Origin: Candidatus Bathyarchaeota archaeon
GTDB taxonomy: Archaea > Thermoproteota > Bathyarchaeia > Bathyarchaeales > Bathycorpusculaceae
Assembly (NCBI GenBank): GCA_963780185.1
Contig: CAWABA010000001.1
Coordinates: forward strand, 96,001 to 160,000
Length of the DNA: 64,000 bases
Direction of reading: 5' to 3'
The notes below the pieces were generated by a model, which was given only the letters and a program-made list of their open reading frames with translations, made no database searches and was not told the DNA's origin. The translations under genes were made by a program, and so were the position numbers. Positions 28,351-47,370 of the stretch are shown here, one piece after another. Each line of letters opens with the position of its first letter. Position 1 is the stretch's first letter.

Positions 28351-29464
28351 TTAACACTCGATAATCAGTTTTATTGCATTGACGAGTTTTTGGTTGTCTT
28401 TGGCTGAGCGCACCGTAACTCGGAAGTACTTGTCGTCCAGGCCCATGAAGGTGCAGCAGTCCCGGATAAGCATACGCTCCTTAATCAGCGCTTCTTTGAG
28501 CTTGGTTGATGTGACTTTGCCGTTTTCGATTTTCACCAGCAGAAAGTTGGTTACGGACGGGTAAACGTGGAAGCCTTCGATTTCGCCCAGGCCTTTGGCA
28601 AGAGCGGCTCTTTCTTTGTTGATGGTTTTCTTTGTGTTTTCGATGAATTCTGTGTCGCCGAAAGCCGCCAGCGTCGCGCAGCTTGCAAGGCTGTTTATGC
28701 TCCAGGGCAAACGCACATTCTCCAGTTTCCCAACCATCGCTCGGCGAAGCTAACCCGTAGCCCAGGCGTATGCCTGCCATGCCGTAGAATTTGGTAACTG
28801 AGCGAATCACGAAGAGGTTGTCGTATTCTTTGACCATGCCAGCCAAAGTGGTTTCTTCGCCTTGATCGGCAAATTCAATGTAGTTTTCGTCCACGCTGAA
28901 TATGACGTCTTTTTTGTGGCAGAAATCAACCAGCTCCAAAACCTCTTCTTTGCTGTAGAGTCTTCCTGAGGGGCTGTGGGGGTTGCAGATGGAGAGGATT
29001 TTTGTTTCAGGCGTTATTGCCTGCTTTATTTTTTCGTTGTCCATGGCGAATCCGTCTGGCAACTGCAGAAACGTGACTTCGCTGCCTACCCGAAGCGCCG
29101 CCTTCTCGTATTCGCTGAATGATGGGATAGGAATTAGTGCTTTGAAGCCTCGGGGCAGGATTTCGGTTATGGCGTAGATGAGTTCGATTGAGCCGTTGCC
29201 TAAAACCACGTTTTCTTCGCCGACGCCGTGTCCCACGTATTTGGCTATTTGCGCTTTGAATTCGACTGGGTTTGGGTCGGGGTAGAATTTGATGAGTTTC
29301 GCCTGTTGCTTGACGGCTTCGACGGCTTTAGGTGAGGGTCCTAAAAAGTTGATGGGTCCGCTGAACTCCAGCACTTCATCTAACGGGACGTTGTATTTTC
29401 GGCTGAAGCCCCAGATGTCTCCGCCGTGACTGACGAATCTGCGTTCCCTACATTGACCCTGCAG
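28351..29464 (-). CDS. cobD: Threonine-phosphate decarboxylase CobD (PLP, HisC-like), frameshift near 28740; start uncertain
   Basis: HGGDIWG upstream of ORF 29374; YPDPNP, GNGSIELI, RSVTKFYGMAGIRLGY, PWSINSLA, LIRDCCTF. Confidence 0.8.
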
Positions 29465-30023
29465 CTTTGTTTTCCTCCATCAACCTTGCGATTTCTTTTT
29501 CAACTACAACGTGAGCTTTAAAGTGGGCATTGTACAGGTTAGTAACCTTGTATAGCCAGTAGATTCCGCCCACGCCGAGCGTAACAATTGTTATTAAAAC
29601 ATATGTTTTTATCGGTATCGTCTGCGGCATAAACATCCGCTCTGGAAAAGCAGAAGCAAGAAAAGCATCTTGGCTTCGCTCATGCACCAGCAAATCCCTA
29701 GACAACATGTAAGTGATGATGAAAGCTGGAATAATTAGTATGATGCTGGCTGCCCAAACCTTCGAGTTTCTTTCAGGGAAAACCGCACTTGCAGCAGGCA
29801 CCTGACCCCCCTTGCCTTTGCTCTTGAGATAATCAGCAACCTGCTTCTCCAATTCCGCCTCATGGCTAAAATGCCTATTTCTTCCCTCAACCAAACGGTA
29901 AAACATTGGGAAAAACGCTGCTCCAAAGGTTACGATGGCTGAGAGGAACCACATGGAAAACCAAAGTTTCCTGTCAGCGCCAACTTTGCTTTGGATAGCG
30001 GTTTGCATCTGGTTACTTTCCAT
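29448..30023 (-). CDS. DUF4234-like membrane protein
   Basis: Repeated L..VT.G....(Y/W).Y helices ending in N.HF. Confidence 0.55.
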   Translation of the reverse strand: MESNQMQTAIQSKVGADRKLWFSMWFLSAIVTFGAAFFPMFYRLVEGRNRHFSHEAELEKQVADYLKSKGKGGQVPAASAVFPERNSKVWAASIILIIPAFIITYMLSRDLLVHERSQDAFLASAFPERMFMPQTIPIKTYVLITIVTLGVGGIYWLYKVTNLYNAHFKAHVVVEKEIARLMEENKAAGSM

Positions 30024-30102
30024 TCGGGTGCTTACAAGGTTGGAGCACCCAAACTTTATAAGGTCTTCCATTGGCATCTAAGAATAAATTGAGCGAGGGG
30101 AA

Positions 30103-30786
30103 ATGCTGCTTTCCATAATAATTCCCGTGTACAACGAGGAATTAACGATAGGCGACATAATCGACCGCGTAAAAGCAGCTGCCCTGCAAACAGGATTAGA
30201 AACTGAAGTAATAGTGGTGGATGACCATTCATCGGACAGGTCGCTTTTGCAAGCCTCCAAACGCAACGTCAAAGTTTACTCGTTAAAGCTGCATTTAGGG
30301 AAGGGCTACGCTTTGCGGGCGGGTTTCGCCAAGGCAAAAGGCGACGTAATAGTCACTTTGGACTCAGATGGTTCGCATCGTCCCGAAGAGCTGTCGGAAA
30401 TTTTAGCTCCGATCTTGCAGGGTGAGGCAGACCTTGTGATCGGCTCAAGATACATGAACCATAAACACGTGGCTGCAAGGCGGCTGAACGCTTTCGGCGT
30501 TCGACTCTTCAATAGCTTCATACAGCTGCTAACTGGCGCCGCTGTAACTGATTCCCAGTCAGGCTACCGCGCTATGAAACGGGAAGTTATGAAAAGCCAA
30601 AAATTAAAGTCAGGCGGATATGAAATAGAATCAGAAATGCTCGTGAAAACAGCCAAGAAAAAATCTCGAATCACCGAGGTGCCGATTAGTTTTGAGCAGC
30701 GAACCTACGGCCGCTCAGGCGTGGATCCGTTGTGGGACGGCTTCAAGATTCTGGTGTCGATAGTTTCAGCTTACATGCGGGGTTAA
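30103..30786 (+). CDS. GT2 glycosyltransferase (DPM-synthase-like)
   Basis: SIIIPVYNEE, VVDDHSSD, LDSDGSH, VIGSR, DSQSGYRA. Confidence 0.9.
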   Translation: MLLSIIIPVYNEELTIGDIIDRVKAAALQTGLETEVIVVDDHSSDRSLLQASKRNVKVYSLKLHLGKGYALRAGFAKAKGDVIVTLDSDGSHRPEELSEILAPILQGEADLVIGSRYMNHKHVAARRLNAFGVRLFNSFIQLLTGAAVTDSQSGYRAMKREVMKSQKLKSGGYEIESEMLVKTAKKKSRITEVPISFEQRTYGRSGVDPLWDGFKILVSIVSAYMRG

Positions 30787-30791
30787 GCGGG

Positions 30792-31785
30792 TTGGCTGAC
30801 GAACTGTTTCCTAAGGTTTCAATTATCGTCGCATCCTACAACAACGAGCAGACCATAGAGGAATGCCTCAAATCCATTTTGGCGCTTGATTACCCCGCGG
30901 GCTTCGTTGAAGTCATAGTTATGGATGGGGCGTCAAAGGACGGCACCGTAAAAAAAGCTGAGCAGTTCCCGGTTAAGGTTGTTTCAATCCGCTTGAACGC
31001 GCCTGCCGCCTACAACTACGCCATGAAAAACGTGGCGGCAAACCCGATTTTAGGCTTCATCGACTCCGACGCAAAAGTGGAGCCGCAGTGGCTACGAAAA
31101 CTTGTCCCCCGCCTAGGCGAAGCCGCAGGTTGCGGGCGTCAGCGGCACCATCGAAACTTGGAACGCCGAAAACCCGTGGGCAAAAAACATCGGGTACGAA
31201 CTCAAAAACCGTTACCGCCGCATAGGCAAGTACACAAGCCGAATCGCCACCATGAACTTGCTGCTGAAAAAGGCGGTTATCGAGGAGGCTGGCGGATGGG
31301 ATGAGAACCTTCCAAGCCAATACGACACCGACTTAGGTTTCCGCCTAAGCGCAAAAGGCTACAAGATTGCCTATGAACCCAGCGCAGTCTGCTACCACTA
31401 CAACAGGCCGACGCTTAGAGGTTACTATAAGCAGCAGCGGCAGTACGGGAAGAACACTTTGAAACTTTATTTCAAGCACGGCGGCTTAGCGAAAGGCGAT
31501 GAAATCACCGATTTCGGAATGAACATCCAGCCCGTGCTTCTTTTGGCGGTCATCGTTTTTTTCCTTGTCGGAATCATTCCCGCTGTCAGGCTTCTCTGGC
31601 TTGGGTCAGGCGTAATCTTAGTCTTCATGCTTCTCTACTTCGACTACTGCGCCACCCGAATCGCCGTCAAATTCCACGACACAGACGCTTTTCGCCTCGT
31701 TGTGCTGTATTTTGTGCGGGCGTGGGCTTGGTTTGTCGGGGCAACAGCAACCGCCCTTCGGTATCTGACTGGGAGGCGCACCTGA
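30792..31785 (+). CDS. GT2 glycosyltransferase with C-terminal TM helices (frameshift near 31125)
   Basis: SIIVASYN, MDGASKD, IDSD, GGWDE..YDTDLGFRL, KQQRQYG. Confidence 0.85.
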
Positions 31786-32981
31786 TGCCGCCTAAGGTTT
31801 GCTTCATTTCGCCCGAGTATTGGCCGCTCACGGGAGGCACAGGCTCCTATGTCTACTACCTGTCCAACGAACTCCTAAAAAACGGCTACAAAATCTACGT
31901 CGTCACAGGAGGCAACCAAGCCCAAGACATCCAAGTTAACCCGCAGCTAAACGTGTCTTTCCTCAAAATCCCAAAGACACCCATCGTCAAATCGTTTATG
32001 CTTGCAGGCGCAAGCTACCGAAAACTCCAAAGCGTCCGCGACAACGCAGGCGTCGACGTCACCCTTCCTCAGCTTCCGTTGACACCTAATTTTGCGGTGC
32101 CGCCCAACTTCGGTAAAACCCTCGTCTGCACTGTGCATTCGACTTGGCGGGGCGAGGCGGAAGCCATCCGAGGGGAACCTTACAGTCGCCTCAACGCCAA
32201 CGAAAAGTTTCTTGTGAGCTTTAACTGGTTTCTGCGTTTTTTTGAGGAAGGCATGCTTCATAGGGCGCGAAGAATTATTGCGGTGAGCCACTTCACAAAA
32301 TGGGAACTTACGAACTACTACAAGATTCCAGCGGGCAAAATCAAAGTCATCCACAACGGCGTTGACACCCACAAGTTCCAGCCCGCCGTGGATAAACGGA
32401 AGGTCAAGCAGGAACTCGGGTTCAACCCAGACGACATAGCCATCGTGTCCGTCGGCAGACTCTACGCACGCAAAGGTCTCTTCACGCTTATCGAAAGTAT
32501 GCCTGCCGTGGTGAAGCGGTTTCCAAAGGCGAAGTTCATCGTTTCAGGCAAGGGACAAAGCGACGAAATGCATAAACTCATCGCTTACGCAGAAAAAATC
32601 GGCGTTAAGGATAACCTTGTTTTCACGGGTTACTACCCTGACAAGAAGCTGCCGCTGCTGTACCAAGCCGCAGACGTCTTCGCCTTCAGCACCTTCTACG
32701 AGCACCACCCATTCGCCGTCCTCGAAGCCCTCTCAACAGGCTTGCCCGTGGTGACAACATGGGTCGGGGGGATTCCTGAAACCATCGAAAACGGCAAAAA
32801 CGGCTTCCTCGTCGAGCCCTTCAATGCAAAACAGTTCTCGGAGAAAATAATTTATTTGCTTGATCACCCCGCGGAAGCAGCGGAGATGGGACGACTTGCG
32901 AGAAAAACCATCGTGGAGCAGTATGACTGGCGCATAGTCGTCAAAGATGCCATAAAAGTCTATGACAAAGCGCTAAGCTAA
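31785..32981 (+). CDS. GT4 glycosyltransferase
   Basis: PEYWPLTGG, IHNGVD, VGRLYARKG, EHHPFAVLEALSTGLPVV. Confidence 0.9.
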   Translation: MPPKVCFISPEYWPLTGGTGSYVYYLSNELLKNGYKIYVVTGGNQAQDIQVNPQLNVSFLKIPKTPIVKSFMLAGASYRKLQSVRDNAGVDVTLPQLPLTPNFAVPPNFGKTLVCTVHSTWRGEAEAIRGEPYSRLNANEKFLVSFNWFLRFFEEGMLHRARRIIAVSHFTKWELTNYYKIPAGKIKVIHNGVDTHKFQPAVDKRKVKQELGFNPDDIAIVSVGRLYARKGLFTLIESMPAVVKRFPKAKFIVSGKGQSDEMHKLIAYAEKIGVKDNLVFTGYYPDKKLPLLYQAADVFAFSTFYEHHPFAVLEALSTGLPVVTTWVGGIPETIENGKNGFLVEPFNAKQFSEKIIYLLDHPAEAAEMGRLARKTIVEQYDWRIVVKDAIKVYDKALS

Positions 32982-33749: not shown

Positions 33750-34715
33750 CTAAGCAATCTGTACTGGTTCGCGTCGATAAGTCATTGTAACCTTCTGGAA
33801 CAGCTTAACTATGTCCAGCGAGCAAAAGAACATTTTAGTCAGGTACTCATGTTGGTAAATCATCATCTGCGCCTTCACAGGCAAGTCAATTCGTGGAGGT
33901 TCAAACCTTCGTTCAACCGTGGAAACCTGAAGCCCTTCAACACTGACGTCATCTTCATGCATACCCGTTTTGTTGGCGATGTAGCCCAGATAGGTTTCTT
34001 TCCAGTTTAGCATCATGACTTTGGCGGCGGCAATATCCACGGCTAGGGCGTCGTTGCCTGTCAGCATTAATCCCATTTTGACGGGTTTGCCTTTTGTTGG
34101 ACCGTTGCCTTCAATGCCGACCCGTGCATCCATAATCGTGAGCTGCGGCTTGAACAGGGTGTAGAGGCGATAGAACACTTCAGGCAGGTAGGGGTGCAGG
34201 TAGATGCGTTTGTTGCTGGGGACGCAGCCGAAGAGGTTTTTGATTGCGCCGCTGTAAGCCATAAACTCGTGCGTTTTCATCAGGGGCAAATCCACGACGG
34301 CGTCGGCGTCAAGGACGGTTTTGGGTAGAAACAGCCGCTTCAATGGGGTGTTGCCCGCAAATTTTACTTCGACGAGTTTGTCTTCGGAGAGGTTGATTAC
34401 GGTGCCGCCTGCAGCCTTCACCGCAGCTTGGGCGCCTGTTTTATCGAAGGCTGTCCAGCAGGGATAATTGAACCCGTTGGATTCGCCTACGATGACTTCG
34501 CTGTTGCCGTCGCGGAGCAAACCGACGAGTTGCCGCATAAGCTCTGGGCTCGTCACCACGCCCGGCAGGTATTCGGGGTGGCTCAAGTTAGGCTTAATGA
34601 AAATCTTGCGTTTGCCGTGCAGCCCTGATTTAGCGACGGCTTCCTTTACAATGTCGCTTATGTCGTCTTTGGCACGGAAAATTTTAACGGTTTGTGGGTT
34701 AGGCACTGTTAGCAC
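33750..34715 (-). CDS. DUF362 family protein
   Basis: IKPNL, VTSPE, VGES, PLMKTH, GAIKNLFGC, GIEGNGP. Confidence 0.85.
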   Translation of the reverse strand: MLTVPNPQTVKIFRAKDDISDIVKEAVAKSGLHGKRKIFIKPNLSHPEYLPGVVTSPELMRQLVGLLRDGNSEVIVGESNGFNYPCWTAFDKTGAQAAVKAAGGTVINLSEDKLVEVKFAGNTPLKRLFLPKTVLDADAVVDLPLMKTHEFMAYSGAIKNLFGCVPSNKRIYLHPYLPEVFYRLYTLFKPQLTIMDARVGIEGNGPTKGKPVKMGLMLTGNDALAVDIAAAKVMMLNWKETYLGYIANKTGMHEDDVSVEGLQVSTVERRFEPPRIDLPVKAQMMIYQHEYLTKMFFCSLDIVKLFQKVTMTYRREPVQIA

Positions 34716-36126
34716 CTTTCACTCCCGTTATGCAGCCAGGGTCGCCATTAAGCATGTCACCGTTATGGTAAGCTGCTGAACGTGCCCTGCAGCCGCCGCA
34801 GATGAACTTGTAGTCGCATTTGCCGCAGGACCCTTTAAGGTTGGCTCTGTTTCGAAAAGCGTTGAAGAGCGGCGCTTTGAGCCAGATGTCTTGGAACTTT
34901 TCGTTTTTGAGGTTGCCCACGTTTACTGGCAGGAAGACGCATGGGTGGACATCGCCTTGAGGTGACAGTGAGCAGTATAGTCGTCCTGCGCCACATCCGC
35001 CGATGAAGTCGCCAAGCGGAACCGCTTTTTTAGTTACCTTGACTGTTTGCATGTGCGCCAGGGACATGGTTACTTCGCCTGTACCTGATGAACCCTGACA
35101 CTGCAGGGCTACACGCGCAAGCTGAGGCGCAGTGGCTAAGATTGTGGTTTTGCAGCCAGCAGACATACGATTCAGCAGGTAACGCAGCACCTTTTCGCGT
35201 TCTTGAGGCGACAAATCTTGGTCAACATGTGCTTTGCCCCGTCCAGTTGGAATAAAATTGAAGTAGGTGAATCGTTCCGCATGAATTTCCTCGGCTAAAT
35301 CGATAATGGCTGGCAACTCCGCCATGTTATTTTTGCCCACCGTCGTAGCAATGCAAACACACAGGTCAGCTTCAACACAATTCTTAAGGCCAGCCAAAGC
35401 CTTATCAAACGTGCCTGGGACGCCTCGAAACTCATCATGCGTTTTGGCAGAGGCGCCGTCTATACTGACGTCGATGTAGTTTACTTTAGCTTGCTTGATT
35501 TTCTGCACATTCTCTTTTGTTAGCAGAGTGCCGTTTGAAGCAAGTGACACGTAGAGTCCACGGTCAGATGCGTGCCGCGCAACCTCAAAGAAGTCACTGC
35601 GCGTCAAAGGTTCACCTCCGCTGAAAGCCAACGCAGTCACACCAGCATCCGCCAGCTGATCCACAACCGCCAACGCCTGCTCAGTGGTTAATTCTTCCTC
35701 TTGAACTGCGCCGCTGTTGGAGTAGCAGTGCTTGCAGGCTAAGTTGCATTTGTGGGTGAAATCCCAAACAACCAGAAACGGGGCGGAAAGCGACATGGGT
35801 TTTTTTATGCCGAAATAAGCAAACGACCGAACTAAATTAAGAACCGCTGTTCGGGCGTAGCGGTCCGACAGAAGCTTCTCTACTTTTTCACGCTTAAAGT
35901 TGAGGCTTCTGCGCAAAAACTCGATCCAGAAACCCACAACCTGTGAATAGAATCGGCTGCAGGCTTCACATTTTTTGTCCGTTTTGCCCGCGTAATCATC
36001 CAACGCTGCTTCAAGAACTGTCCTTCCGCAAGCAGGGCACTTCTTAAGTGACAGCTTGAGCATCCGCTTAGTCATCGGCAGCGTTATCACTGCATTCCAG
36101 AAGGTATCATGGCTAAGTAAGCTCAT
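34699..36126 (-). CDS. Radical SAM/SPASM protein with N-terminal Cys-containing extension
   Basis: WDFTHKCNLACKHCY, FSGGEPL, GCGAGR, PCVF, CGKC..ICGGCRAR..GDPGC. Confidence 0.88.
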   Translation of the reverse strand: MSLLSHDTFWNAVITLPMTKRMLKLSLKKCPACGRTVLEAALDDYAGKTDKKCEACSRFYSQVVGFWIEFLRRSLNFKREKVEKLLSDRYARTAVLNLVRSFAYFGIKKPMSLSAPFLVVWDFTHKCNLACKHCYSNSGAVQEEELTTEQALAVVDQLADAGVTALAFSGGEPLTRSDFFEVARHASDRGLYVSLASNGTLLTKENVQKIKQAKVNYIDVSIDGASAKTHDEFRGVPGTFDKALAGLKNCVEADLCVCIATTVGKNNMAELPAIIDLAEEIHAERFTYFNFIPTGRGKAHVDQDLSPQEREKVLRYLLNRMSAGCKTTILATAPQLARVALQCQGSSGTGEVTMSLAHMQTVKVTKKAVPLGDFIGGCGAGRLYCSLSPQGDVHPCVFLPVNVGNLKNEKFQDIWLKAPLFNAFRNRANLKGSCGKCDYKFICGGCRARSAAYHNGDMLNGDPGCITGVKGANSA

Positions 36127-36199
36127 CCGAGGCGAGTCTCCTGAAACAGCAACAGGGGAAGAGTAGGTTGGGCGGGGATGTTAAATATTTCCCTAAACG

Positions 36200-36817
36200 T
36201 TAAAATTTGGTTTTCATGATTTTTTCTGCTATTTCCAGGTCTTTGAGCGTGTTAATGTTGAGTAGGACTTCGAGTTCTTGCGTGATTAAGGCATTTGTTT
36301 CGATTTTTCCTTCGCCTTGGATTCTTGCGCCGTTTACAATGTTGACTCCTGACACCGCGTACCATATGCCCATGTACTCGTCGGTGGAGTCAATGGAGAG
36401 CCCCAAAGCTTCGCGGGCTTGAATGGGAACGAAAACCGCATAGAAATCTTTCCCGCAAGCCTCAAACTGGTTGACGATTTTGTCGAGAAACTTGCCTGTG
36501 ACAGCTGGCGAATCCGCTGGAACCGTCAAAACAGGACCCATCAAGTTGGCCATCCGCGTTGCCTGCTTGAGGTCGTTGTGGTACCCGTTGGCGTCGGTGC
36601 AAAGAACCTTCCAGCCCCTCTGCTTGCAGTGCAACTCGGTTTGGGGCGTGTTGGGGCTTGTGACCACGTAAAACTCGGAAACCCGCTCTGCGTCTGCAAC
36701 CGCTTCGACAACCCAGTCCAAGAGCGGTTTGCCCAGAAAGGGCAGAAGCGGCTTCTCCACTGGCAACCCGATGCGTTTGCCCCTGCCGCCAGCCATAATC
36801 AACGCGGGAACCTTCAT
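36200..36817 (-). CDS. cobY: Adenosylcobinamide-phosphate guanylyltransferase CobY (copy 1)
   Basis: ALIMAGGRGKR..EKPL, TSPNTP.T, GYHNDL, NINTLKDL; coupled to cobS. Confidence 0.85.
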   Translation of the reverse strand: MKVPALIMAGGRGKRIGLPVEKPLLPFLGKPLLDWVVEAVADAERVSEFYVVTSPNTPQTELHCKQRGWKVLCTDANGYHNDLKQATRMANLMGPVLTVPADSPAVTGKFLDKIVNQFEACGKDFYAVFVPIQAREALGLSIDSTDEYMGIWYAVSGVNIVNGARIQGEGKIETNALITQELEVLLNINTLKDLEIAEKIMKTKF

Positions 36818-37644
36818 AGAAGAATCAACACGCCTGCAAACAAAATAAGCGTAACTGCCCTTGCCACCTCGTTTGTTGCGCCGATGGCGTCGCCTGAAAC
36901 CCCGCCGAAAACTCTCTGCGAAACCTTCGCCATCACAAACGCCACTGGAACGCTAACAAGAACCAGCCCGACGGCAACCAACCCCACGTAAGGTTTGCCT
37001 ATCAAAGCGAAAAACGGGTAAACAATCAAGACTGAGAGCGGGTAGGCGATTGCGTTAAGTTTGGTTTTTGCTTTCTTCAGGAAAATCGAGCCTAACCCCT
37101 TATGCGTGGGTTTGCCGACCCAGACGATGGTAACCATGGATAGTTTGGCTGAGAGTTCGGCGGTGAGGATGGCTCCGAAAGCGTAGAGTGGGTTAATCAG
37201 GAACAAGCCTGCGAACGCGGCAAACTCTACAACCATCGCCAGCAGGGCTCCCCAGTAGGTTACGGTCCAGGCGTGGGCGACCATTTTGCGGTCATGGAGG
37301 TTTCGCAGTCCGAAGGCGTTGCCTAGGTCGATTAAGCCGTCGAAGTGTTGGAGTCCTGTGAGGACCAGTAGGAACGCGACGGTCATGGCGGCGACCGCAA
37401 GCTTCGAAAGCAAGTCAACTGGCAGGGCAACTAACGAGTTAACTAAGCTGAGCAGATAGTGGACTATGATGTTTACGCCGACAAAGTAGGTGCCTGCAAG
37501 CACGCCGATTAAGCCGCCTACGATGGGAAAAAGATAAACGTGCTCTGCAGTGGTGAATATGAAATCTTCTTTTCCGCCCACGGGGATTATGGTTAGGAAA
37601 GACAGCAAATCCCTAAAAGTTTTTATAGCTTTCGCAGGCGACAT
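36814..37644 (-). CDS. cobS: Cobamide synthase CobS (copy 1, altered motifs)
   Basis: SFLTIIP, FPIVG, TGLQHFDGLIDLGNA, FGGVSGDAIGATNE. Confidence 0.8.
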   Translation of the reverse strand: MSPAKAIKTFRDLLSFLTIIPVGGKEDFIFTTAEHVYLFPIVGGLIGVLAGTYFVGVNIIVHYLLSLVNSLVALPVDLLSKLAVAAMTVAFLLVLTGLQHFDGLIDLGNAFGLRNLHDRKMVAHAWTVTYWGALLAMVVEFAAFAGLFLINPLYAFGAILTAELSAKLSMVTIVWVGKPTHKGLGSIFLKKAKTKLNAIAYPLSVLIVYPFFALIGKPYVGLVAVGLVLVSVPVAFVMAKVSQRVFGGVSGDAIGATNEVARAVTLILFAGVLILL

Positions 37645-37691
37645 ATACCCTACAACTAGTGAATGGAAATATAGGCTTTGTCGTGGTAGTT

Positions 37692-38621
37692 ATGGGGGAC
37701 CTTAAAGGGAAAAAGATACTTGTAACGGGCGGAGCAGGGTTCATCGGGTTCCACCTATGCAAGAAGCTATCCGGTTTAACGTCTAACTTGACGGTTTACG
37801 ATAACATGTCAAACGGCAAAATGGAAAACGTCAAAGACGCGGCTGTGCCAAATTTTGTGAAAGGCGACATTCTTGACCTAAAAAAACTTCAGTCGCTTGA
37901 AAAACAGGAATTGATCTACCATTTAGCGGCCCAGGTCGTTGTCCCCTACTCCATGGAGAACCCGCTTATCGATTTTGAAACCAACGCCAAAGGAGCGCTG
38001 CATGTGCTTGAGAAAGCCCGCAAAGACGATGCAAAAATGGTTTTCGCGTCCAGCGCAGCGGTGTACGGTAACCCAACTCAGCTTCCGACCACGGAAGATT
38101 ACGGTTTTCACCCTGTCTCATGCTACGGCATGTCTAAGGTGGTCGGCGAAGAATACTGCCAGATGTACAGAGACCAATATCGGTTAGACGTAACCGTCGT
38201 GAGGTTCGCTAACGTGTACGGGCTCAGATGCCACGGCGTCATCCATGACTTCCTCGACAAAATCGCAAAGGACCCGAGCAAGCTAGAGATAATTGGCACG
38301 GGATTGCAGTCACGGGACCTGGTGAACGTCGCCGACGTGGTCGACGCACTCTTAACTGTGGGAGCAGACGAATCAACCAACGGCGAAGTCTACAACATCG
38401 GCATCGGGAAAACCACCAAAATCATCGACCTCGCCCACCTGATGCTCCAAATTCTTAACCTGCAAAACAAAACCAAAGTGACAACAACAGGCGTCTCTTG
38501 GCAAGGAGACATCGACACGATCTGGTTTGACAACTCCAAAGCCAAGAAAGCGTTACATTGGAACCCCAAAATAAGCCTCGAAGAAAGCATCAAAGAAGTC
38601 ATCGCTGACAGGAAACTTTAA
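37692..38621 (+). CDS. NAD-dependent nucleotide-sugar epimerase/dehydratase
   Basis: LVTGGAGFIG, HLAAQ, ASSAAVYG, YGMSK, RFANVYG. Confidence 0.9.
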   Translation: MGDLKGKKILVTGGAGFIGFHLCKKLSGLTSNLTVYDNMSNGKMENVKDAAVPNFVKGDILDLKKLQSLEKQELIYHLAAQVVVPYSMENPLIDFETNAKGALHVLEKARKDDAKMVFASSAAVYGNPTQLPTTEDYGFHPVSCYGMSKVVGEEYCQMYRDQYRLDVTVVRFANVYGLRCHGVIHDFLDKIAKDPSKLEIIGTGLQSRDLVNVADVVDALLTVGADESTNGEVYNIGIGKTTKIIDLAHLMLQILNLQNKTKVTTTGVSWQGDIDTIWFDNSKAKKALHWNPKISLEESIKEVIADRKL

Positions 38622-39514
38622 TGACTGCTCCAGCCCCAGCCAGAGGACTAATCGCCCTTCTGAGGCTTCCCTACTGGCTGATGACTGGCGGCTTATCTCT
38701 CTTAACAGCTTTTGCCATCACAAAAAACCCCACAGACCTAAACGTACAAACGATTCTGCTGATTTTCTTCTCGATGGCTTTCATAACATCCGCTGGCTTC
38801 GCAGTAAACGACTACTTCGACAGAGAAAGCGACGCATTAATCAAGCCAAAACGCCCCATACCCTCAGGCAGCCTGTCTCTTCGGCAAGTCGTGGCGGTTT
38901 CAAGCGTGCTTTTCACGGCAGGCTTAATCATGGCTTTATTCATCAACCCGCTCAGCTTCACAATAATCGCCGCAGACTCCGCCTTGCTGCTGGTTTACTC
39001 AACAGTTGTAAAGCGCAAGTCAGGGTTCGCAGCCAACGTCTTGGTGGGAATCCTAACAGGCACCGCCTTTCTCTTCGGGGAAGCAACGATCTCCAGCCCC
39101 CCAACCGTAAGCATAATTTCCCTGAGCCTGTACCCGATAGCGTTAGGCACAGTAGGCGGCAACATCCTGCGCGATGTGCTGAGCCTTGACGGTGACTCAA
39201 AAACGGGGTACCCGACGCTTCCGCAGAAAATCGGCATAAACGATTCAGCGAAGGTGGCGGCTGGGTTTTTCTTGTTAACTGGTTTTCTTGTGCCGCTTCC
39301 ATTCTTCGTTGGCGAGGGCAACTTTGACTTTTTCTATCTGGTGCCCATCCTTGTTTGGAGTGTGCTTCTGATTTACTCTTCAATTCGCCTAGCAACGGCG
39401 TCTTCGAATGTTTTGAATGTACGCAAGTATGAACGGGTAATTACCATGTCGATGATTCTGCTTCCGTTAGCGTTGATTCTTGAGGCAGTGTCCCACATGA
39501 TTGGAGGACTATAG
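38621..39514 (+). CDS. UbiA-family prenyltransferase, DGGGP synthase-like
   Basis: NDYFDRESD..KPKRPIPSG; YS..K; RDVLSLDGD...YPTLP. Confidence 0.85.
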   Translation: MTAPAPARGLIALLRLPYWLMTGGLSLLTAFAITKNPTDLNVQTILLIFFSMAFITSAGFAVNDYFDRESDALIKPKRPIPSGSLSLRQVVAVSSVLFTAGLIMALFINPLSFTIIAADSALLLVYSTVVKRKSGFAANVLVGILTGTAFLFGEATISSPPTVSIISLSLYPIALGTVGGNILRDVLSLDGDSKTGYPTLPQKIGINDSAKVAAGFFLLTGFLVPLPFFVGEGNFDFFYLVPILVWSVLLIYSSIRLATASSNVLNVRKYERVITMSMILLPLALILEAVSHMIGGL

Positions 39515-39515
39515 A

Positions 39516-40982
39516 GTGAGCGAAACAAAAAGTATCTGTCCAGAATGCCAGAAAAAAATAGACGCCCAACTGCGGCAAGCTAACGGCAAAATAAAAATCA
39601 CCAAACAATGCCCCGAACACGGCGACTTCGAAGCCACCCACTGGCAAAGCACACCCGTCTTCAACCACATGCAAACCTACGACCAATTCCAGTACCTCGG
39701 CGACTTAAACGCCCCCAAAAACCCAGAAGGCTGCCCCTACAAATGCGAAACCTGCACCGAACACGCCTCGGGTACGGTCATCGGCGTCATTGACGTGACG
39801 AAACGTTGCAACCTTCGCTGCGCAATTTGCTTCTCCACGTTTCCCGAGCAAGGAACCGACTATGAGCCAACCAAAGAGCACCTTGTAAAAATGCTTGAGT
39901 TCGTAAGTCAAGCTAACCCCAAGCCGCCAGCCATCCTGTTCTCAGGCGGAGAACCTCTCGAACGGGAGGACATGCCTGAAATCATCGGTGTTGCCCACAA
40001 ACTAAAGTTCATGACTATTTTGGCAACCAACGGGACCCATTTGGTTGACACTCCAGGGTTGGCGAAGAAACTGAAAGCCAATGGCTTAAACATTGTTTAT
40101 TTATCGTTTGACAGTTTTCACGACGATTTTAACACAAAGATTCGGGGAAAAGCGCTGCTTGAGGAGAAACTGAAGGCTATTGAAGTTTGCCGCAAATACG
40201 ACATGGAGATCATTTTAGTTAACACGTTGATGAAGAGCCTAAACGACAAAGAAGTCGGCGACATGATACGGTTCGCCGCAAAAAACACCGACATAGTCCG
40301 CGGATTAATCTTCCAACCCATCGCGTTCACCGGCAGAGCCACCGAGAACCCTTTCCGCGAAAACTTCCGCGAATGGTCCTTCGCAGAAGACGTTGAAAAA
40401 CAAACAAACGGCGAAATCAAAGCCACCGACCTATTCCCCATGTCCGTTATGACTTCGCCGATCAAGATAATGCGCAAATTCATGCAGAAGCCATGGCCCC
40501 TCTTCTCCTGCAGCCCACAGTGCGGCATCGTAAACTGGATCTACGTTTCAAAAGAGGGCAAAATGTTCCCCATTAACCGCTTCGTCAACTTTGACCGCTT
40601 CTTCTCCACCATCAGAAAAACCGCTGAATCCGCAGAATCCAGAGGCAAATTCTCGCTGCTTTCCTCACTGTTTATGGCGTCCATGCTTTCTATGAACATG
40701 TTGCTGGTGACGCAGGAAGTGGGCATGCTGACCTTGGTGAACTCGGTTATGCGTATGCATCTTTCGCCGTCGTATCAGTCGCTTGGCAAAATCCGCCGAA
40801 GAATCTTTCTGCTGGGCTGCATGGCGTTCATGGACAGCTACAACTTTGACGTTAACCGTGTCCGACGTTGCGTCGTGCACTACATCACGCCTGACCTGAA
40901 AATCATACCGTTCTGCGCCTACAACAACATCCACAGAGTCGCCATCGAGAAACAATACGCAGAAAAACAAAAAAAGCGATAG
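39516..40982 (+). CDS. tes: Tetraether lipid synthase Tes (GDGT-MAS/MJ0619 family radical SAM)
   Basis: CPEC..CPEHG N-terminal metal site, GCPYKCETC..H, CNLRCAICF, CSPQCG, MAFMDSYNFD, RCVVHYITPD..IPFCAYN. Confidence 0.85.
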   Translation: MSETKSICPECQKKIDAQLRQANGKIKITKQCPEHGDFEATHWQSTPVFNHMQTYDQFQYLGDLNAPKNPEGCPYKCETCTEHASGTVIGVIDVTKRCNLRCAICFSTFPEQGTDYEPTKEHLVKMLEFVSQANPKPPAILFSGGEPLEREDMPEIIGVAHKLKFMTILATNGTHLVDTPGLAKKLKANGLNIVYLSFDSFHDDFNTKIRGKALLEEKLKAIEVCRKYDMEIILVNTLMKSLNDKEVGDMIRFAAKNTDIVRGLIFQPIAFTGRATENPFRENFREWSFAEDVEKQTNGEIKATDLFPMSVMTSPIKIMRKFMQKPWPLFSCSPQCGIVNWIYVSKEGKMFPINRFVNFDRFFSTIRKTAESAESRGKFSLLSSLFMASMLSMNMLLVTQEVGMLTLVNSVMRMHLSPSYQSLGKIRRRIFLLGCMAFMDSYNFDVNRVRRCVVHYITPDLKIIPFCAYNNIHRVAIEKQYAEKQKKR

Positions 40983-41978: not shown

Positions 41979-42503
41979 TTAACTTACGACTTGAATCGGC
42001 AACACACAGAAGTCATACGTAAACTGCCATGAGCCGCCGTTCAAAGAATTGTAACTGTACAGTTCAAAAACAACCCAGTAGCTGCCAACCTGATTTTCAG
42101 TCACCGTGATTGACTGATGCCAGCTTTTCCCATCCGCCAAAGTCGTGTTGTAGGTTGCGGTGGGTTGGGTATTGACTGGGGATGAGTCAAGGTTGCTGGT
42201 TATTTTCACTTGAACTTGGTATTGCACGGTCCACCCCATGTTGTTGATAACTGTAAGCGGTACACTAAAGGTGCTGTTCTGGTTAGCAACCAGAAGCTGC
42301 GGGTAATTCTCCGCTTTGTTCTGTGCATCAAGAAGGTAAATCGTGCTGTACCCTTTCGGCGCGGGTTTGAAGAACACGTAGTAGCCTGCAAGCATCGACG
42401 CAATGATGATTAAGGCCAGAAAGATAGCGACTATGTAGCCTTTATCATCGTTTATGCCTATTTTCTTTCCAATGTTTTTGACAGACTCTAACCGTATCCG
42501 CAT
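41979..42503 (-). CDS. DUF1616-like membrane-anchored protein
   Basis: TM followed by YSTIYLLD..KAENYP; VVFELY. Confidence 0.65.
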   Translation of the reverse strand: MRIRLESVKNIGKKIGINDDKGYIVAIFLALIIIASMLAGYYVFFKPAPKGYSTIYLLDAQNKAENYPQLLVANQNSTFSVPLTVINNMGWTVQYQVQVKITSNLDSSPVNTQPTATYNTTLADGKSWHQSITVTENQVGSYWVVFELYSYNSLNGGSWQFTYDFCVLPIQVVS

Positions 42504-43182
42504 CTAGAAATCCCTTGAATATAGTGCTAAATATTTCGATACCTGACTTAAATGGTTTAAGCTTGGTCTTGCCGTATATCCGGGGCTTGTAGGTCGTGGG
42601 GATTTCAACCATATTGTACCCAACCTTGGCGAACTGCACCAGCATTTCCGTGGCAAACGCCATGTCCCCTTCTACCAGCGGCACGTTGTCAATGCATTCG
42701 TGTGATATTGCTCGGAAACCTGATTGGGTGTCGCTGAGTATTTGGCTGTAGAAGAAGTCGTAAACCATTGTTATGATTTTGTTTCCGATGAAGTTGGTGA
42801 ATCCCATCGCTTTTTTCGGGTCGAACATGCGGGTGGCTAAAACCATGTCCGCGTCCTTCTCAAGCATCCGCTCAACTAAGCGGTTGATGTGTTTTACTTC
42901 GTAGGTTCCGTCACCGTCAACCATAACGATGATGTTTCCCTTCGCGTTTTTCATGCCTGTCCGCAAGGCTATTCCGTAGCCGCGTCTTGGCTCAATAATT
43001 AGCCTGCAAAAATTTGTGTCTTTAACAAGTTCCATTGTTCCGTCGGTGGAGTTGCCGTCGACAACGATGATTTCGTTGGGGTACGCTAACTCTTTGTGGA
43101 TAGTGTTGACTGCCTCAAGTATGTTTCCTGCTTCGTTAAGTGTCGGAATGACCACCGAAACCATTTCGACTTTTGATGTCAT
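42445..43182 (-). CDS. GT2 glycosyltransferase (DPM-synthase-like)
   Basis: VVIPTLNEA, VVDGNSTDGT, DGDGTY, DTQSGFRA. Confidence 0.9.
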   Translation of the reverse strand: MTSKVEMVSVVIPTLNEAGNILEAVNTIHKELAYPNEIIVVDGNSTDGTMELVKDTNFCRLIIEPRRGYGIALRTGMKNAKGNIIVMVDGDGTYEVKHINRLVERMLEKDADMVLATRMFDPKKAMGFTNFIGNKIITMVYDFFYSQILSDTQSGFRAISHECIDNVPLVEGDMAFATEMLVQFAKVGYNMVEIPTTYKPRIYGKTKLKPFKSGIEIFSTIFKGFLDADTVRVCQKHWKENRHKR

Positions 43183-43226
43183 AGCTAAACTTTCCCTGCG
43201 AAGGCTATACTGTTTCCACATCTTGG

Positions 43227-44384
43227 TTAAATAAGCTCTTCGTATATTTCCACGAGACGTTCAACGTTTCTGTCCCAGCTGTATTTTTCTTCAACCGCAG
43301 CTCGAAGCTCCGGCTTACGAGAAGATAAATCATCACTTGAATATTCAAAGATTGCTTTCGCCATAGGCTCAGGCTGGTTGGGCGGCACAAGAGCACCGAA
43401 GTCATCAGTCAAGATTTCGCGGATTCCGCCAACGTCCGTGGCTACAACTGGCAAGCCGCAAGCCATGGCTTCCAGCGCAACCAAAGGCAAACCTTCCCCG
43501 GATTTAGATGGCAACACAAAAAAGTCAGCCGCGTTATAGCAAAACGGCAAATCCTCATCGCTGACAAACCCGGCAAGCCGAAAGTTCTTTTCTATCCCTA
43601 ACTCCCGAATTCTGGTTTGAACGCCGTTTTGGTCGGGTCCTTTTCCAACGACGAGGAAAACAACGTTCGGGTTCTTTTTGATGGCGAGGTTTGCGCTTTC
43701 AATAAGGGTGTCGATGCCGTTCTTGTAAACCAGACGCCTCACAGTTATCGCTACCTTTGCGCTCTTCGGAATCCCAAATTTAGCTCGCATTTCCTCCCGT
43801 TTTCCCGGCAGATGCCTGAAATGCTCCAAGTCAACGCCGTTGTGGAGGACTTTGATTTTGTCTGGTTTTGCACCTAAGCTTAGGACGTACTCTTTAGTCG
43901 CGTTGCTTACAGTAATTATTCTGTCAGCTTCCCTGAGTGTCTCTTTCCCAACGGCTAGGTCGTTGAGGCGCTCGACGTTGTCAAACATGCTGTCGTACTG
44001 GATGAACGTGTTATGCTGGGTTAAAACGAAGGGCTTGTGGTATCTTTTGGCAAGTTTAGCGGCGATAAGCGAGGTTAGGTAGGGGTGACCGTGCGCGTGG
44101 ACTATGTCGCTGCCTTTTACGGCGCTGAGGAAGGTTCCAAGGCTTGTCGGCGTCGGGATAGAGTAGGGTATGCCGAGGCGGAAGCCCGTGTTTAGAGACT
44201 CATAGCATTCGACAGGTATGCCATCAACTACGTAGGTTTTTGGGGTGTCGATGCGGTTTGTAACAACCGTGGGTTTAAAGTTCAGGTTCATCAGCCGTTT
44301 GCTCTGTTCATAAACAACCCTTTCTATCCCGCCAACATGGGGCAGAAAAGTATGCGTAACAATGCACAGCCTTGTTTGAACCAT
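43227..44384 (-). CDS. GT4 glycosyltransferase
   Basis: FLPHVGGIE, HNGVD, EGLPLVALEAMACGLPVVATDVGG. Confidence 0.9.
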   Translation of the reverse strand: MVQTRLCIVTHTFLPHVGGIERVVYEQSKRLMNLNFKPTVVTNRIDTPKTYVVDGIPVECYESLNTGFRLGIPYSIPTPTSLGTFLSAVKGSDIVHAHGHPYLTSLIAAKLAKRYHKPFVLTQHNTFIQYDSMFDNVERLNDLAVGKETLREADRIITVSNATKEYVLSLGAKPDKIKVLHNGVDLEHFRHLPGKREEMRAKFGIPKSAKVAITVRRLVYKNGIDTLIESANLAIKKNPNVVFLVVGKGPDQNGVQTRIRELGIEKNFRLAGFVSDEDLPFCYNAADFFVLPSKSGEGLPLVALEAMACGLPVVATDVGGIREILTDDFGALVPPNQPEPMAKAIFEYSSDDLSSRKPELRAAVEEKYSWDRNVERLVEIYEELI

Positions 44385-44804
44385 GGAGCCCAACAGCGTA
44401 AACTCCCAGCCAACATACGATAATAAGCTTTCTGGTAAATCTGCAGACAAGTGTTGCCGTCGGGAAATTTCAAATGGAAACATTTAATTGAAATCGGCGT
44501 TTTGCATCGAATTTTTTCTTGTATGTTTGTTGGCTGCTTAAACCGTAATGCTTATATGAAAAGGTTGGATAAACCAACCAAACATGGAATTGATAATTTG
44601 CTGAACATCGAGAAAAAATCGCTTGTTCGAGTCAAACTTCTATCGAAGGGCAAGTTATCTGCATATTTGACTGCCAAAACCCTATTTAGTTGTTCACCCG
44701 TTTCTGGACTTTTTCCCCTTCAATCGTTTGCAAGTCACGTTCACCTTAAACCCGCACGGAATTCGGGGTTGAGGGTGAAGGACATTTAGGGAGGACAAAA
44801 TGAA

Positions 44805-45492
44805 ATGAAAGTTGTTGCTTCTTGGAGCGGCGGCAAAGACAGCTGCCTACGCATATTACTTGGCAACCCAGCAAGGCTGCGAAGTAGTCAAAATCTTGAC
44901 CATGATGATGAGCAAAGAAAAATCAAACTTCCACATGATACCAGCAGGCATCCTTGACGCCCAATCCGACGCAATAGGCATTCCCATAGTGAAACAGCAG
45001 GCAACTCCAAAAACCTACGAAGATGACTTCAAAGCTGCGCTGCGACAGTTCAAAGCCGAAGGCGCCGAAGGCTTAGTCACAGGCGACATCTACGAGGTAT
45101 CGGGGCATGAAGAGGGTTGGCTGGGCAGGGTACTTAAAGAAGTCGGGTTGAAACCGATTAAGCCGCTGTGGATGCTTGACACGAAGCAGATTTACCTAGA
45201 CTACTTAAAAACGGGTTTCAAAGCCACGGTGGTTCGCACTAACCTGGAGAAGCTGGGCGTGGAGTGGCTTGGGAGGGTGCTGGACAGAAAATTCTACGAC
45301 GACATCCTCAAACTCGGCAACGTTGACCCATGCGGCGAAGGCGGCGAATACCACACCGTCATCACGGATGGACCCACGTTTAAGAAAAAGATTGAAATCC
45401 TAGAAACACAAAAGCACAAGCTAGACGGCGGCTTCGGATGCCTCGAAATCAAAAGGTTCGAAGTCAAGCCGAAAGGCAAGGGTAAAGCGTAG
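44805..45492 (+). CDS. DUF71/Dph6-like ATP pyrophosphatase, cob-operon associated (frameshift near 44846)
   Basis: MKVVASWSGGKDSC read from ATG 44805; TGDI, PLW, WLGR, DPCGEGGEYHT. Confidence 0.85.
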
Positions 45493-45493
45493 A

Positions 45494-46595
45494 ATGGACC
45501 AATCACTCGACGTAATAATCGCGAATAACGAGTTGAAAGCGAAGGCTTTCCTCGACGAAATCTCAGGCAAAAACCCTCTTTTCATCTGCACAATAGCAAC
45601 AACTGAAACCGGCAAAATCGCGGGAATATCTGCGGCTGGTGCGAACCCTGAGTTCACGGATTATACTCCTCCCGCCGATGCTGAATTGCTCCTTCTTGGC
45701 AGATGCAAATCCATCAGCGGCGTCCCCATAACTCCTGACGGTATCCCCACGCCTGGGTTGATCACAAGGTCTGCTCTGCAGCTTGCCGACATTCCCGTGT
45801 TGATTGCCAGCGGCGGCGTTGAGGATAAAGCCGCAGATTCCCTTTTTGGATTTAGGCGGAAGTCCCGGCAGAGACATTCGAAGCGGCAACGCAGTTGACA
45901 ATGTTGCGGAAGTTATTGAACGAGCAAAGACTGCGGGGAAAAACCTCGCGAAAGCTGTGGATTACCTTGTGATTGGCGAGAGCATCCCCGGTGGGACAAC
46001 AACCGCGCTTGGCGTGTTGTCGGCGCTGGGTGTGAAGGCGGAGGGAAAAGTAAGCAGCACCTTGCCCAACAATCCCCATAGCTTGAAGGCTGAGACGGTT
46101 CGGGCGGGTTTGGCGGCTGCAGGCGAACGTTTCGGCAGTTTAGCCAAAGACCCTGTTAAGGCTATCTCCTGCGTTGGCGATCCGATGATGGCAGCGTTTA
46201 CAGGTTTGGTTGTCGGCGCGGCGGGGCAGGTTCCTGTTTTGATGGCGGGTGGAACGCAGATGAGCGCTGTTTTAGCCCTCATTAATGCTTTGCAGCCCGA
46301 TGTTCTCTGCAACGTGGCGGTTGGCACGACCCGGTGGGTTGCAAAGGACAAGTCGTCTGACCTCAAAGGCATAGTGAAGCAGTTCTGTGATGTGCCGATT
46401 TTAGCCGCGGACCTGAACTTTGGCGGTTCACGTTTCCCAGGGCTGCAAATTTATGAGACTGGTTTGGTGAAGGAAGGGGTGGGCGCAGGCGGCGCTTCAA
46501 TTGCGGCGATGGCTAAGCTTGGCGGCGCTGTGACGGCTGACCTATTGCTTAAAGAGATAGAGCGCAATTATGGTTTGCTGATGGGTTTGAAGTGA
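45494..46595 (+). CDS. cobT: Archaeal nicotinate-nucleotide:base phosphoribosyltransferase CobT (frameshift near 45820)
   Basis: GISAAGA..YTPPADAE, PTPGLITR, GESIPGGTTTA, GGTQM, VKEGVGAGG. Confidence 0.88.
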
Positions 46596-46596
46596 G

Positions 46597-47370
46597 ATGG
46601 TTATTAAAGAGCTCAAGAACCTTCTGTCTTTCCTCACAATCTTTCCCGTAGCAATGGACAAGGACATGCTTACTGACTGCGCAAAAGGCATGTGGACTTT
46701 TCCGCTTATCGGCGCTTTCCTCGGTTTAATTGCAGGAGTTTTCGGCTGGGTAGCTGACCAATTTGTGCCAGGCATCGTTGTGGGCGCTTTGGTCTTGGCG
46801 GTTCTGCTGCTTATAACTGGGCTTCACCACACGGACGGGCTGCTGGATTTCGGCGACGGCGTCATGGCTCACGGCACACCCCAACACAAAATTGAGGTTA
46901 TGCATGACCAGCTAACAGGCGCAGGCGGCTTATCGTTGGGCATCATGACGATGCTGATTACCGCTTTAGCTATCGGGCAAATCAGCGGCAACGGACTCTT
47001 CAAAATCCCTCTAATCGTCGGCGGCATCATCGCCGTTGAGGCTTCAGCTAAGCTTTCGATGACCGTGATGGCTTGGGCTGGAAAATCGGTTCATCAAGGC
47101 ATGAACTCATCGTTCCTCGAAGCCATGAGCGGCAGCAAAGGCACCCTGCGTTTGGTCGCTGCGCTGGTGCTTTCTTTCGCGGTGGCTTTGCCTCTGCTGG
47201 GTTGGGCAGGCGCCTTCGTCGTTTTAACGGCTGTGGTTACGAGTTTGGTGATGGTTGCAGTTGCCCACAGAAACTTCGGCGGGGTCACAGGCGACGTTTT
47301 CGGAGCCACAAACGAGATAACCCGAATGGTCTGCGTGATTGTTTTGTTGGCGGTGGCTGCTTGGGCGTAA
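46597..47370 (+). CDS. cobS: Cobamide synthase CobS (copy 2, canonical)
   Basis: TGLHHTDGLLDFGDG, MHD..TGAGG, FGGVTGDVFGATNE. Confidence 0.9.
   Translation: MVIKELKNLLSFLTIFPVAMDKDMLTDCAKGMWTFPLIGAFLGLIAGVFGWVADQFVPGIVVGALVLAVLLLITGLHHTDGLLDFGDGVMAHGTPQHKIEVMHDQLTGAGGLSLGIMTMLITALAIGQISGNGLFKIPLIVGGIIAVEASAKLSMTVMAWAGKSVHQGMNSSFLEAMSGSKGTLRLVAALVLSFAVALPLLGWAGAFVVLTAVVTSLVMVAVAHRNFGGVTGDVFGATNEITRMVCVIVLLAVAAWA

Follow-up and report, generated by a model that had tools for sequence, protein, structure and literature searches.

The genes treated here have their closest described counterparts in archaeal tetraether-lipid synthesis and in cobamide (vitamin B12) metabolism. Tes, the synthase of glycerol dialkyl glycerol tetraethers (GDGTs), also known as GDGT-MAS, is represented by MJ0619 of Methanocaldococcus jannaschii (PMC9433317, PMC8941075), and in Methanosarcina acetivorans its gene adjoins one for a geranylgeranyl reductase. 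Gms is described as an AhbD-like protein with a 100-residue N-terminal extension in PMC11214058, which counts 188 sequences from Bathyarchaeota, and as having six helices at its N-terminus and a bridging region that holds a pair of helices along with a beta-hairpin in PMC11186832. In both papers Bathyarchaeota are a main reservoir of Gms, and in Thermococcus guaymasensis gms clusters with grs and gmm. Among UbiA-family prenyltransferases, the digeranylgeranylglyceryl phosphate (DGGGP) synthase of M. jannaschii (MjDGGGPS) has a solved structure, 6M31, and the substitution D183A strongly lowers DGGGPS activity (review PMC9385802). On the cobamide side, Salmonella CobS is null as D82A, D86A, D89A or D229A and impaired as M104A (PMC8092220), CobS-dependent remodelling in Vibrio cholerae is cited in PMC7733943, and PMC3541065 links DUF71 proteins with a distinguishing His to B12 salvage, apart from Dph6. 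Members of these families meet in and around the locus described here, positions 33,750 to 40,982 of the window (the whole analysed stretch of 64,000 nucleotides, positions 96,001 to 160,000 of contig CAWABA010000001.1, assembly GCA_963780185.1, from a Candidatus Bathyarchaeota archaeon), where a tes operon and a cobS operon start back to back (Table 1).

With moderate confidence, this locus is read as the core of a lineage-conserved tetraether-lipid cluster of Bathyarchaeia, interleaved with cobamide salvage and accompanied by a specialised pair, CobS1–CobY1. What sequence comparison can be taken to establish in this picture is the identity of the genes at family level, the conservation of their order and of the promoter-like elements, and the invariance of the motif changes. 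Tes, Gms, CobS, CobY and the DUF71-B12 proteins are already known, and the occurrence of Gms in Bathyarchaeota has been published; new here are a CobS that carries Asn where Salmonella CobS needs an Asp and a UbiA whose catalytic Asp is replaced by Ser, within a conserved locus composed otherwise mostly of known enzymes. Among the titles and abstracts listed by searches of an open-access library there was nothing on the divergent arrangement, on a CobS clade with D89N or on a UbiA with D183S, although supplements may show the tes–gms neighbourhood.

Relatives were collected by a Tes-based genome scan that found 142; the counts below cover the best 80 of the 142, with Tes identity of 69–95%, and a locus is called testable where its flanks (up to 10 kb) suffice for the pair in question. 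The sample represents one family-level radiation. The hosts are Bathyarchaeia, most scan records being so labelled (Bathycorpusculum included) and a minority bearing other labels, and the carriers are archaea from soil, peat and termite gut. Two loci, L009 and L014, are labelled as bacterial (Acidoferrum sp. and Limnocylindrales) yet display the archaeal gene order, with Tes identity of 83–86%; the labels probably reflect mislabelling or misbinning.

The layout is not a product of chance. The ubiA and tes genes are adjacent in 79/79 testable loci and the epimerase and ubiA genes in 75/75. The divergence of cobS from the epimerase gene, whose conservation had been set beforehand as a check on the first-pass annotation, is found in 74/74, and a cobY follows cobS in 70/71. 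The junction between tes and the DUF1616 gene is kept in 58/74 loci and thus breaks in some. The coordinates of the earlier annotation, its 47-bp gap between the cobS1 start (37644, minus strand) and the epimerase ATG (37692, plus strand) and its gene overlaps are all borne out: TAATG at 38619–38623 couples the epimerase to UbiA, ATGA at 36814–36817 is the overlap of cobS1 and cobY1, and the radical S-adenosylmethionine (SAM) gene overlaps DUF362 by 17 nt (34699–34715). Its gene names also agree at family level with profile scans, except for UbiA as DGGGP synthase. Between the two candidate starts of tes, TTG 39501 (overlapping UbiA) and GTG 39516, the latter is the most likely: it lies 1 nt past the UbiA stop at 39514 and is preceded by GGAGG, and most relatives align from residue 6.

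Tes exceeds its family cut-off by only 12 bits, with 4/4 copies scanned scoring 459–462, remains below that of the TrsS model (321 vs 490) and aligns over its full length with 7TOL (E 4e-111). Over 76 alignment rows it keeps the C-x2-C-x20-C-x2-H rubredoxin site, the three Cys and the His of the N-cluster, the CxxxCxxC motif, Met439 and Tyr459, the metal-site residues and the last two being those named in PMC9433317; the rubredoxin, N-cluster, radical SAM and C-cluster motifs are all shared with MJ0619. Whereas tes of M. acetivorans neighbours a reductase gene, here it stands in an operon with an NDP (nucleoside diphosphate)-sugar epimerase gene and an atypical ubiA. The epimerase scores 162 against the GalE cut-off of 262 (TIGR01179). 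Downstream of tes, positions 41183–41947 (plus strand) encode an exported-looking hypothetical protein that has no family match; among the loci viewed, similar sequences are present in L018 and L021 only.

As a DGGGP synthase, UbiA would be atypical. Its nearest solved relative is indeed MjDGGGPS, and in the alignment to 6M31 the equivalents of N62, D66 and D70 (motif 1), D180 and D187 are retained, but all DGGGPS cut-offs are missed (159 vs 296 and 97 vs 353 for the NCBIfam models, 165 vs 269 for PRK12884). The third Asp-rich motif (D180, D183, D187) is incomplete: the D183 position is taken by Ser, which chlorophyll synthase has there too, in 72/73 loci, the remaining one not being parsed. 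In the Atlas the protein neighbours bathyarchaeal and Chloroflexota UbiA clusters. Membership among the DGGGP synthases is not established, and the protein may still form DGGGP.

The radical SAM/SPASM protein of the minus strand is most likely Gms, a tetraether cross-linker that would need no B12. It combines the features by which Gms was recognised here, an AhbD-like radical SAM/SPASM core, an N-terminal extension of ∼100 residues and a length over 400–420 residues. The best NCBIfam match is AhbD, at 311 bits against a cut-off of 500, and the profile begins only at residue 118. In the AlphaFold model (predicted local distance difference test score, pLDDT, 90.9) six helices occupy residues 7–105, and a bridging region is formed by helices 307–322 and 335–344 and the beta-hairpin strands 351–356 and 360–365; this matches the architecture given for Gms in PMC11186832. 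The spacing of 68 between C378 and C446 equals that of C370 and C438 in tested Gms. Identity to P0279 and P0370, which only their names and lengths tie to entries for Pyrodictium and Caldisphaera in the published list of Gms proteins, is 42% and 40% over ∼460 residues (364 and 361 bits), whereas an AhbD-like protein reaches 265 bits; the cut-off, the N-terminal domain and these pairwise scores speak against the protein being the heme synthase AhbD itself, a reading that was rejected. Pfam recognises Radical_SAM, Fer4_12 and SPASM only, and no B12-binding domain. A homologue search with P0134, which we take to be Thermococcales-like, gave no tested Gms among the best 120 listed; an Atlas search with the N-terminal part returned only matches under 0.9; and a fold search retrieved SuiB and other SPASM enzymes, with no Gms structure among the matches listed. 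Read as Gms, the protein would place a lipid gene on the minus-strand side after all, one acting on the product of Tes. In contrast to the T. guaymasensis cluster, gms is here paired with DUF362, near tes.

The proposal that cobS, cobY, the radical SAM gene and DUF362 form a single unit is probably not correct. The gap between cobY1 and the radical SAM gene, 73 bp, contains a separate promoter-like motif, GAAATMTTTA, which has 2 occurrences in the whole window and is found in 51/55 loci with gms (28/30 with gms detached, 23/25 with gms adjacent to cobY). Of the 63 testable loci, 24 have gms at most 300 bp from cobY, 22 have it further upstream and 8 at other places in the flanks, while in 9 it was not seen. 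Because gms has its own conserved promoter-like motif and is often detached from cobY, the minus-strand side most likely consists of two transcription units, cobS1–cobY1 and gms–DUF362. DUF362 directly follows the radical SAM gene in 48/52 testable loci and is probably co-transcribed with it.

The shared control region that had been postulated between the divergent operons is recovered as overlapping promoter-like elements conserved in relatives. The spacer measures 47–48 bp in 42/67 loci, and its minus-strand element, which reads as a transcription factor B recognition element (BRE) plus a TATA box ∼25 nt ahead of the cobS1 ATG, has the core motif in 64/67 loci and the full motif in 61/67. 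Given the general layout of archaeal promoters, this position suggests a leaderless cobS1–cobY1 transcript. The plus-strand counterpart lies inside cobS1, where codons 4–13 reach a synonymous-codon conservation of 0.93, compared with 0.50–0.70 at the matching codons in ten genes nearby and with at most 0.84 in any 10-codon window elsewhere; on the plus strand these codons coincide with a TATA-like run. With these frozen codons and the spacer element, the two promoters appear interdigitated, either one within the transcribed region of the other, and because they overlap, cobS1–cobY1 and the tes operon are probably co-regulated. The overlap supports shared control, yet by itself it would also lock the genes together. 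A scan for sigma-70 promoters and terminators stayed at chance level and uses the wrong model for archaea, and an Rfam scan of the window gave no matches.

CobS1 is 34% identical to CobS2, the second CobS of the window, and passes TIGR00317 marginally (112.4 vs 110). Asn replaces the last Asp of HxDxxxDxxD in 68/68 locus copies and also in 120/120 homologues listed, a set that includes the protein of the window itself. The likeness to the cobamide synthase of PMC8092220 extends to the Pfam CobS family, to the equivalents of H80, D82, D86, D229 and G45 (numbering transferred by motif) and to GxxGDxxG, with G251, D252 and G255 plus G43 and G47 invariant in 73 rows, and coupling by ATGA to a cobY gene recalls the CobS/archaeal CobY system; the differences are the altered residues, the greater length of the segment that precedes the catalytic loop and the presence of a second, normal copy nearby. 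Averaged over 25 loci, CobS1 and CobS2 both have an identity of 0.73, so that by this measure CobS1 is not decaying. Foldseek with the CobS1 model (pLDDT 91.9) gave no match at E≤0.001, and a PDB sequence search found no CobS. The VIA match of CobS1 to the CDP-diacylglycerol synthetase 4Q2E (Z 8.1, root-mean-square deviation 4.2, 160 aligned), tied with MgtE (Z 7.8), was left unused, as it falls in the range of unrelated helical proteins.

Its partner CobY1 keeps the family motifs of M. jannaschii CobY and falls below the family cut-offs (122 vs 175, 101 vs 250), as do two CobY2 copies (145 vs 175). In a tree built from 50 CobY sequences out of the 106 extracted, the CobY1 clade is separate from CobY2 with support of 100/100, and in a nine-locus clade (98/96) the place of CobY1 behind cobS1 is taken by a CobY2 orthologue. 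At L049 cbiB comes after cobY1 in the same direction. The CobY motifs, the CobY2 swap, the cbiB adjacency, the retained CobS1 residues, the equal conservation of the two CobS copies and the known CobS-dependent remodelling in V. cholerae favour a cobamide role, and to judge from them CobS1–CobY1 most likely still act on cobamides, probably as a pair for cobamide remodelling. The loci with the swap (L056–L060, L062, L063, L068 and L072) are mostly labelled Bathycorpusculum, and cobT–cobS2 was not seen within the flanks covered.

A second cob operon lies beyond the locus, its cobT–cobS2–cobY2 part 4–7 kb past tes and cobS2 itself 5.6 kb past it. The DUF71/Dph6-like ATPase at its head is probably of the B12-salvage type, to judge from its His188. 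The cobT gene is ahead of cobS2 in 41/41 loci and cobY after it in 38/38, HxDxxxDxxD is intact in 35/35 locus copies of CobS2, and cobT and cobS2 are both present in 33/47 loci with full flanks. The window also has a cobD-like gene, cbiB and two further DUF71 genes, at 18116–18853 (plus strand) and 24759–25505 (minus strand), which are 29–31% identical to the one at 44812–45492; all three are below the Dph6 cut-off. In its DUF71-headed cobT–cobS2–cobY2 order and in the cbiB and cobD-like genes, this arrangement resembles the DUF71-B12 salvage clusters of PMC3541065; it differs in that operons for lipids and glycosyltransferases are interleaved with the salvage genes here, in three divergent pairs. 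These pairs follow one another within 28351–47971 (cobD against glycosyltransferases, cobS1 against tes, and glycosyltransferases with cobZ against cobT), each is kept in relatives, and in every one a cobamide-related operon stands against one for lipids or glycosyltransferases. A gene for a cobZ-like ribazole phosphatase stands between GT4 (glycosyltransferase family 4) and DUF71 in most relatives (47/80 loci, e.g. L042, 14103–14594, minus strand), and no match to it was found in the window, where the gap concerned lies near 44483–44866. An AP-endonuclease-2 gene convergent on cobY2, which we take to be an archaeal endonuclease IV, was weighed as a CbiR-like remodelling enzyme and had no NCBIfam match at 1e-30.

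These archaea need corrinoids for the Wood–Ljungdahl pathway and methyl transfer as well, and the first-pass suggestion of a lipid branch with cobamide-dependent steps is plausible at the level of the genome; for the locus itself it is not shown. In its favour, the minus-strand side probably holds a lipid gene, gms, and six B12-binding radical SAM genes lie in the window at 4775–23368, 10–29 kb upstream of the locus. They fall within 19 kb, two are frameshifted, those compared are 31–57% identical, and by domain content they are candidate Gmm-type lipid methylases. Gmm is presented in PMC11214058 as a B12-dependent tetraether modifier with several homologues in many Bathyarchaeota, Ted is a further B12-dependent modifier from a bathyarchaeon (bioRxiv 2025.10.20.683597), and one genus is reported to make butanetriol dialkyl glycerol tetraethers (BDGTs; review PMC12694404). 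On the other side, Pfam finds no B12-binding domain in the proteins of 33750–40982, gms–DUF362 is detachable, B12-binding radical SAM genes occur in the flanks of only 4/80 relatives, cobS1 lacks a residue essential in tested CobS, and a normal cobS stands beyond tes.

The locus could operate as follows. The epimerase would supply an NDP-sugar and, together with the flanking glycosyltransferases, sugars for lipids or the S-layer; the atypical UbiA would form a prenyl-ether bond; Tes, as its family membership implies, would join diethers head-to-head into GDGT; and Gms would cross-link the two GDGT chains into glycerol monoalkyl glycerol tetraether (GMGT) without B12, its gene presumably being transcribed with DUF362 from the conserved promoter-like motif. 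CobS1 might cleave or exchange the lower ligand of imported cobamides, or handle an unusual one, and CobY1 would re-activate cobinamide phosphate, the pair thereby remodelling or specialising cobamides for CobT–CobS2–CobY2. Any need of the lipid pathway for B12 would be indirect, via methylases or desaturases of the B12-binding radical SAM kind whose genes lie elsewhere.

Several findings weigh against this scheme. The putative Gms has no equivalent of C372 but Ala, which most of the relatives seen have there too. A tree of 45 rows puts it on the extended side with the two Gms-list proteins, as the deepest branch there (split supported at only 92/90), one extended row falling outside that side and one short row inside it, and the references in both tree and pairwise comparison are those two list proteins rather than experimentally tested Gms. 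The DGGGPS cut-offs are missed in 3/3 UbiA copies scanned (the window and two relatives). CobS1 has Asn for D89, essential in Salmonella, where only D89A was made, and Ala for M104, and with these changes any action on cobamides may be lacking; cbiB stands next to cobY1 in 1 locus of 80. The two adjoining divergent pairs are also well kept, at 20/20 testable loci for the DUF4234 gene against GT2 and 40/43 for the other, and with neighbours about equally conserved, conservation alone is no proof of functional coupling.

The rival explanations are not fully exclusive of one another. It is possible, if unlikely, that the locus belongs to a second, specialised tetraether branch (paralogous Tes, atypical UbiA, Gms and B12 methylases) co-regulated with cobamide supply, the housekeeping tes and DGGGP synthase being encoded elsewhere and the products being, for example, butanetriol-type or methylated lipids. 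The narrow Tes margin, the missed DGGGPS cut-offs with Ser for D183, the six B12-binding radical SAM genes, the multiple Gmm homologues and the BDGTs of one genus would all suit such a branch. Among the first 24 labels of the Tes tree in the supplement of PMC8941075, 4/20 Bathyarchaeota genomes are doubled, but the tree includes 41 Grs outgroup sequences and doubled labels need not be a second Tes. Each isolate is seen once among the 80 loci, in a scan that picks up close relatives only, the B12-binding radical SAM genes seldom accompany the locus, and CarS (CDP-archaeol synthase), a core lipid enzyme, is nearby in 11/80 loci, which fits a housekeeping cluster.

A merely spatial association is rather improbable. 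On this account a compact genome would carry housekeeping lipid and cobamide genes back to back, with CobS1 non-catalytic or slowly drifting. The preservation of the two neighbouring divergent pairs, the restriction of the sample to one radiation and the resistance to rearrangement that overlapping promoters alone would confer are in keeping with it; yet CobS1 and CobS2 are equally conserved, the altered residues of CobS1 do not drift but are invariant, and other junctions do break, as seen for tes–DUF1616 and for cobY–gms (within 300 bp in 24/63).

It is highly doubtful that a duplicated B12 nucleotide-loop module was made into a lipid enzyme pair for the ethers from co-regulated UbiA, Tes and Gms, with CobY1 using NTP to activate a small phospho-alcohol or sugar phosphate and the membrane-bound CobS1 transferring it, by the NDP-alcohol phosphotransfer chemistry of cobamide synthase, to a hydroxyl of archaeol or GDGT as a head group: the invariant D89N and M104A equivalents, in a loop thought to contact adenosylcobinamide-GDP, the constant company of cobS1 and the tes operon with their overlapping promoter elements and the existence of a separate normal cobS–cobY pair speak for it, whereas CobY1 retains CobY-specific motifs and is replaced in place by CobY2 in the nine-locus clade, and no result points to any substrate. 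If true, a lipid-recruited CobY1–CobS1 would represent a route to the head groups or backbones of archaeal lipids that has not been described.

Bathyarchaeia predominate in anoxic soils, peats and sediments and make tetraether lipids that serve as biomarkers, and the lipid genes of this lineage have barely been tested. UbiA, Tes and the probable Gms offer a compact expressible set from a mesophilic lineage that is itself a candidate source of the GMGTs of peat. CobS1 would be one of two things, an archaeal enzyme dedicated to cobamide remodelling or a cob enzyme drawn into lipid synthesis. Pipelines annotate both active-site variants, the CobS with Asn and the DGGGPS-like UbiA with Ser, as ordinary; should CobS1 be no synthase, automated cobS counts would overstate the capacity of these genomes for B12 synthesis.

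Table 1. Features of the locus and its surroundings (window positions; GT, glycosyltransferase; SDR, short-chain dehydrogenase/reductase)
Feature	Position	Strand	Basis or remark
DUF362 protein without ferredoxin domain	33750..34715	-	Pfam PF04015, 169 bits
Radical SAM/SPASM protein with ∼110-aa N-terminal helical domain, probable Gms	34699..36126	-	475 aa; AhbD-like
gms promoter-like element (BRE/TATA type)	36182..36193	-	∼60 nt upstream of gms ATG
CobY1, adenosylcobinamide-phosphate guanylyltransferase paralogue	36200..36817	-	best PDB match M. jannaschii CobY (2MZB/3RSB), E 6e-17
CobS1, cobamide-synthase paralogue	36814..37644	-	HxDxxxDxxN for HxDxxxDxxD; second loop motif altered
Putative promoter of epimerase–UbiA–tes operon	37610..37628; TATA-like TTTTTATA 37620-37627	+	inside first cobS1 codons
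Spacer with BRE/TATA-like element	37645..37691; element 37668-37684	- (element)	sequence conservation
NDP-sugar epimerase/dehydratase (extended SDR, GalE-like)	37692..38621	+	Pfam PF01370, 181 bits
UbiA-family prenyltransferase, atypical	38621..39514	+	best PDB match 6M31 (MjDGGGPS), E 1e-28
Tetraether synthase Tes (GDGT-MAS)	39516..40982	+	NF045702, 462 bits vs cut-off 450
DUF1616–GT2–GT4 operon	41979..44483	-	family scans; relatives add cobZ-like gene at head
DUF71/Dph6-like ATPase heading cobT–cobS2–cobY2	44812..45492	+	PF01902; His at position 188, which separates DUF71-B12 from Dph6
CobT, frameshifted in assembly	45494..46595	+	C-terminal piece passes TIGR00303, 276 vs 240
CobS2, motifs intact	46597..47370	+	TIGR00317, 162 vs 110
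CobY2, frameshifted in assembly	47361..47971	+	three in-order tblastn pieces
Divergent block: cobD-like aminotransferase (frameshifted) and DUF4234 (-) vs GT2, GT2 (split) and GT4 (+)	28351..32981	- / +	family scans
B12-binding radical SAM paralogues	4775-6232, 8535-9929, ∼15263-16625	-	domain content
B12-binding radical SAM paralogues	∼18952-20402, 20480-21775, 21932-23368	+	domain content

Where CarS is present in the flanks, it constitutes an alternative neighbourhood downstream of cobY1 (e.g. L035, 5537–6049, plus strand). Many genes of the window are split, such as the cobD-like gene (28351–29374), a GT2 gene (30732–31785), cobT (45494–46595), cobY2 (47361–47971) and the AP-endonuclease-2 gene (48744–49633), and these are probably assembly frameshifts rather than true pseudogenes.

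Between GT4 and DUF362 lies a toxin–antitoxin pair of MntA-HepT type (33041–33699, plus strand). Only few relatives have it, L061, L064 and, with MntA only, L019, and the pair is therefore probably a mobile insertion. A heme catalase gene is found at 25703–27214 (plus strand) in this presumed anaerobe.

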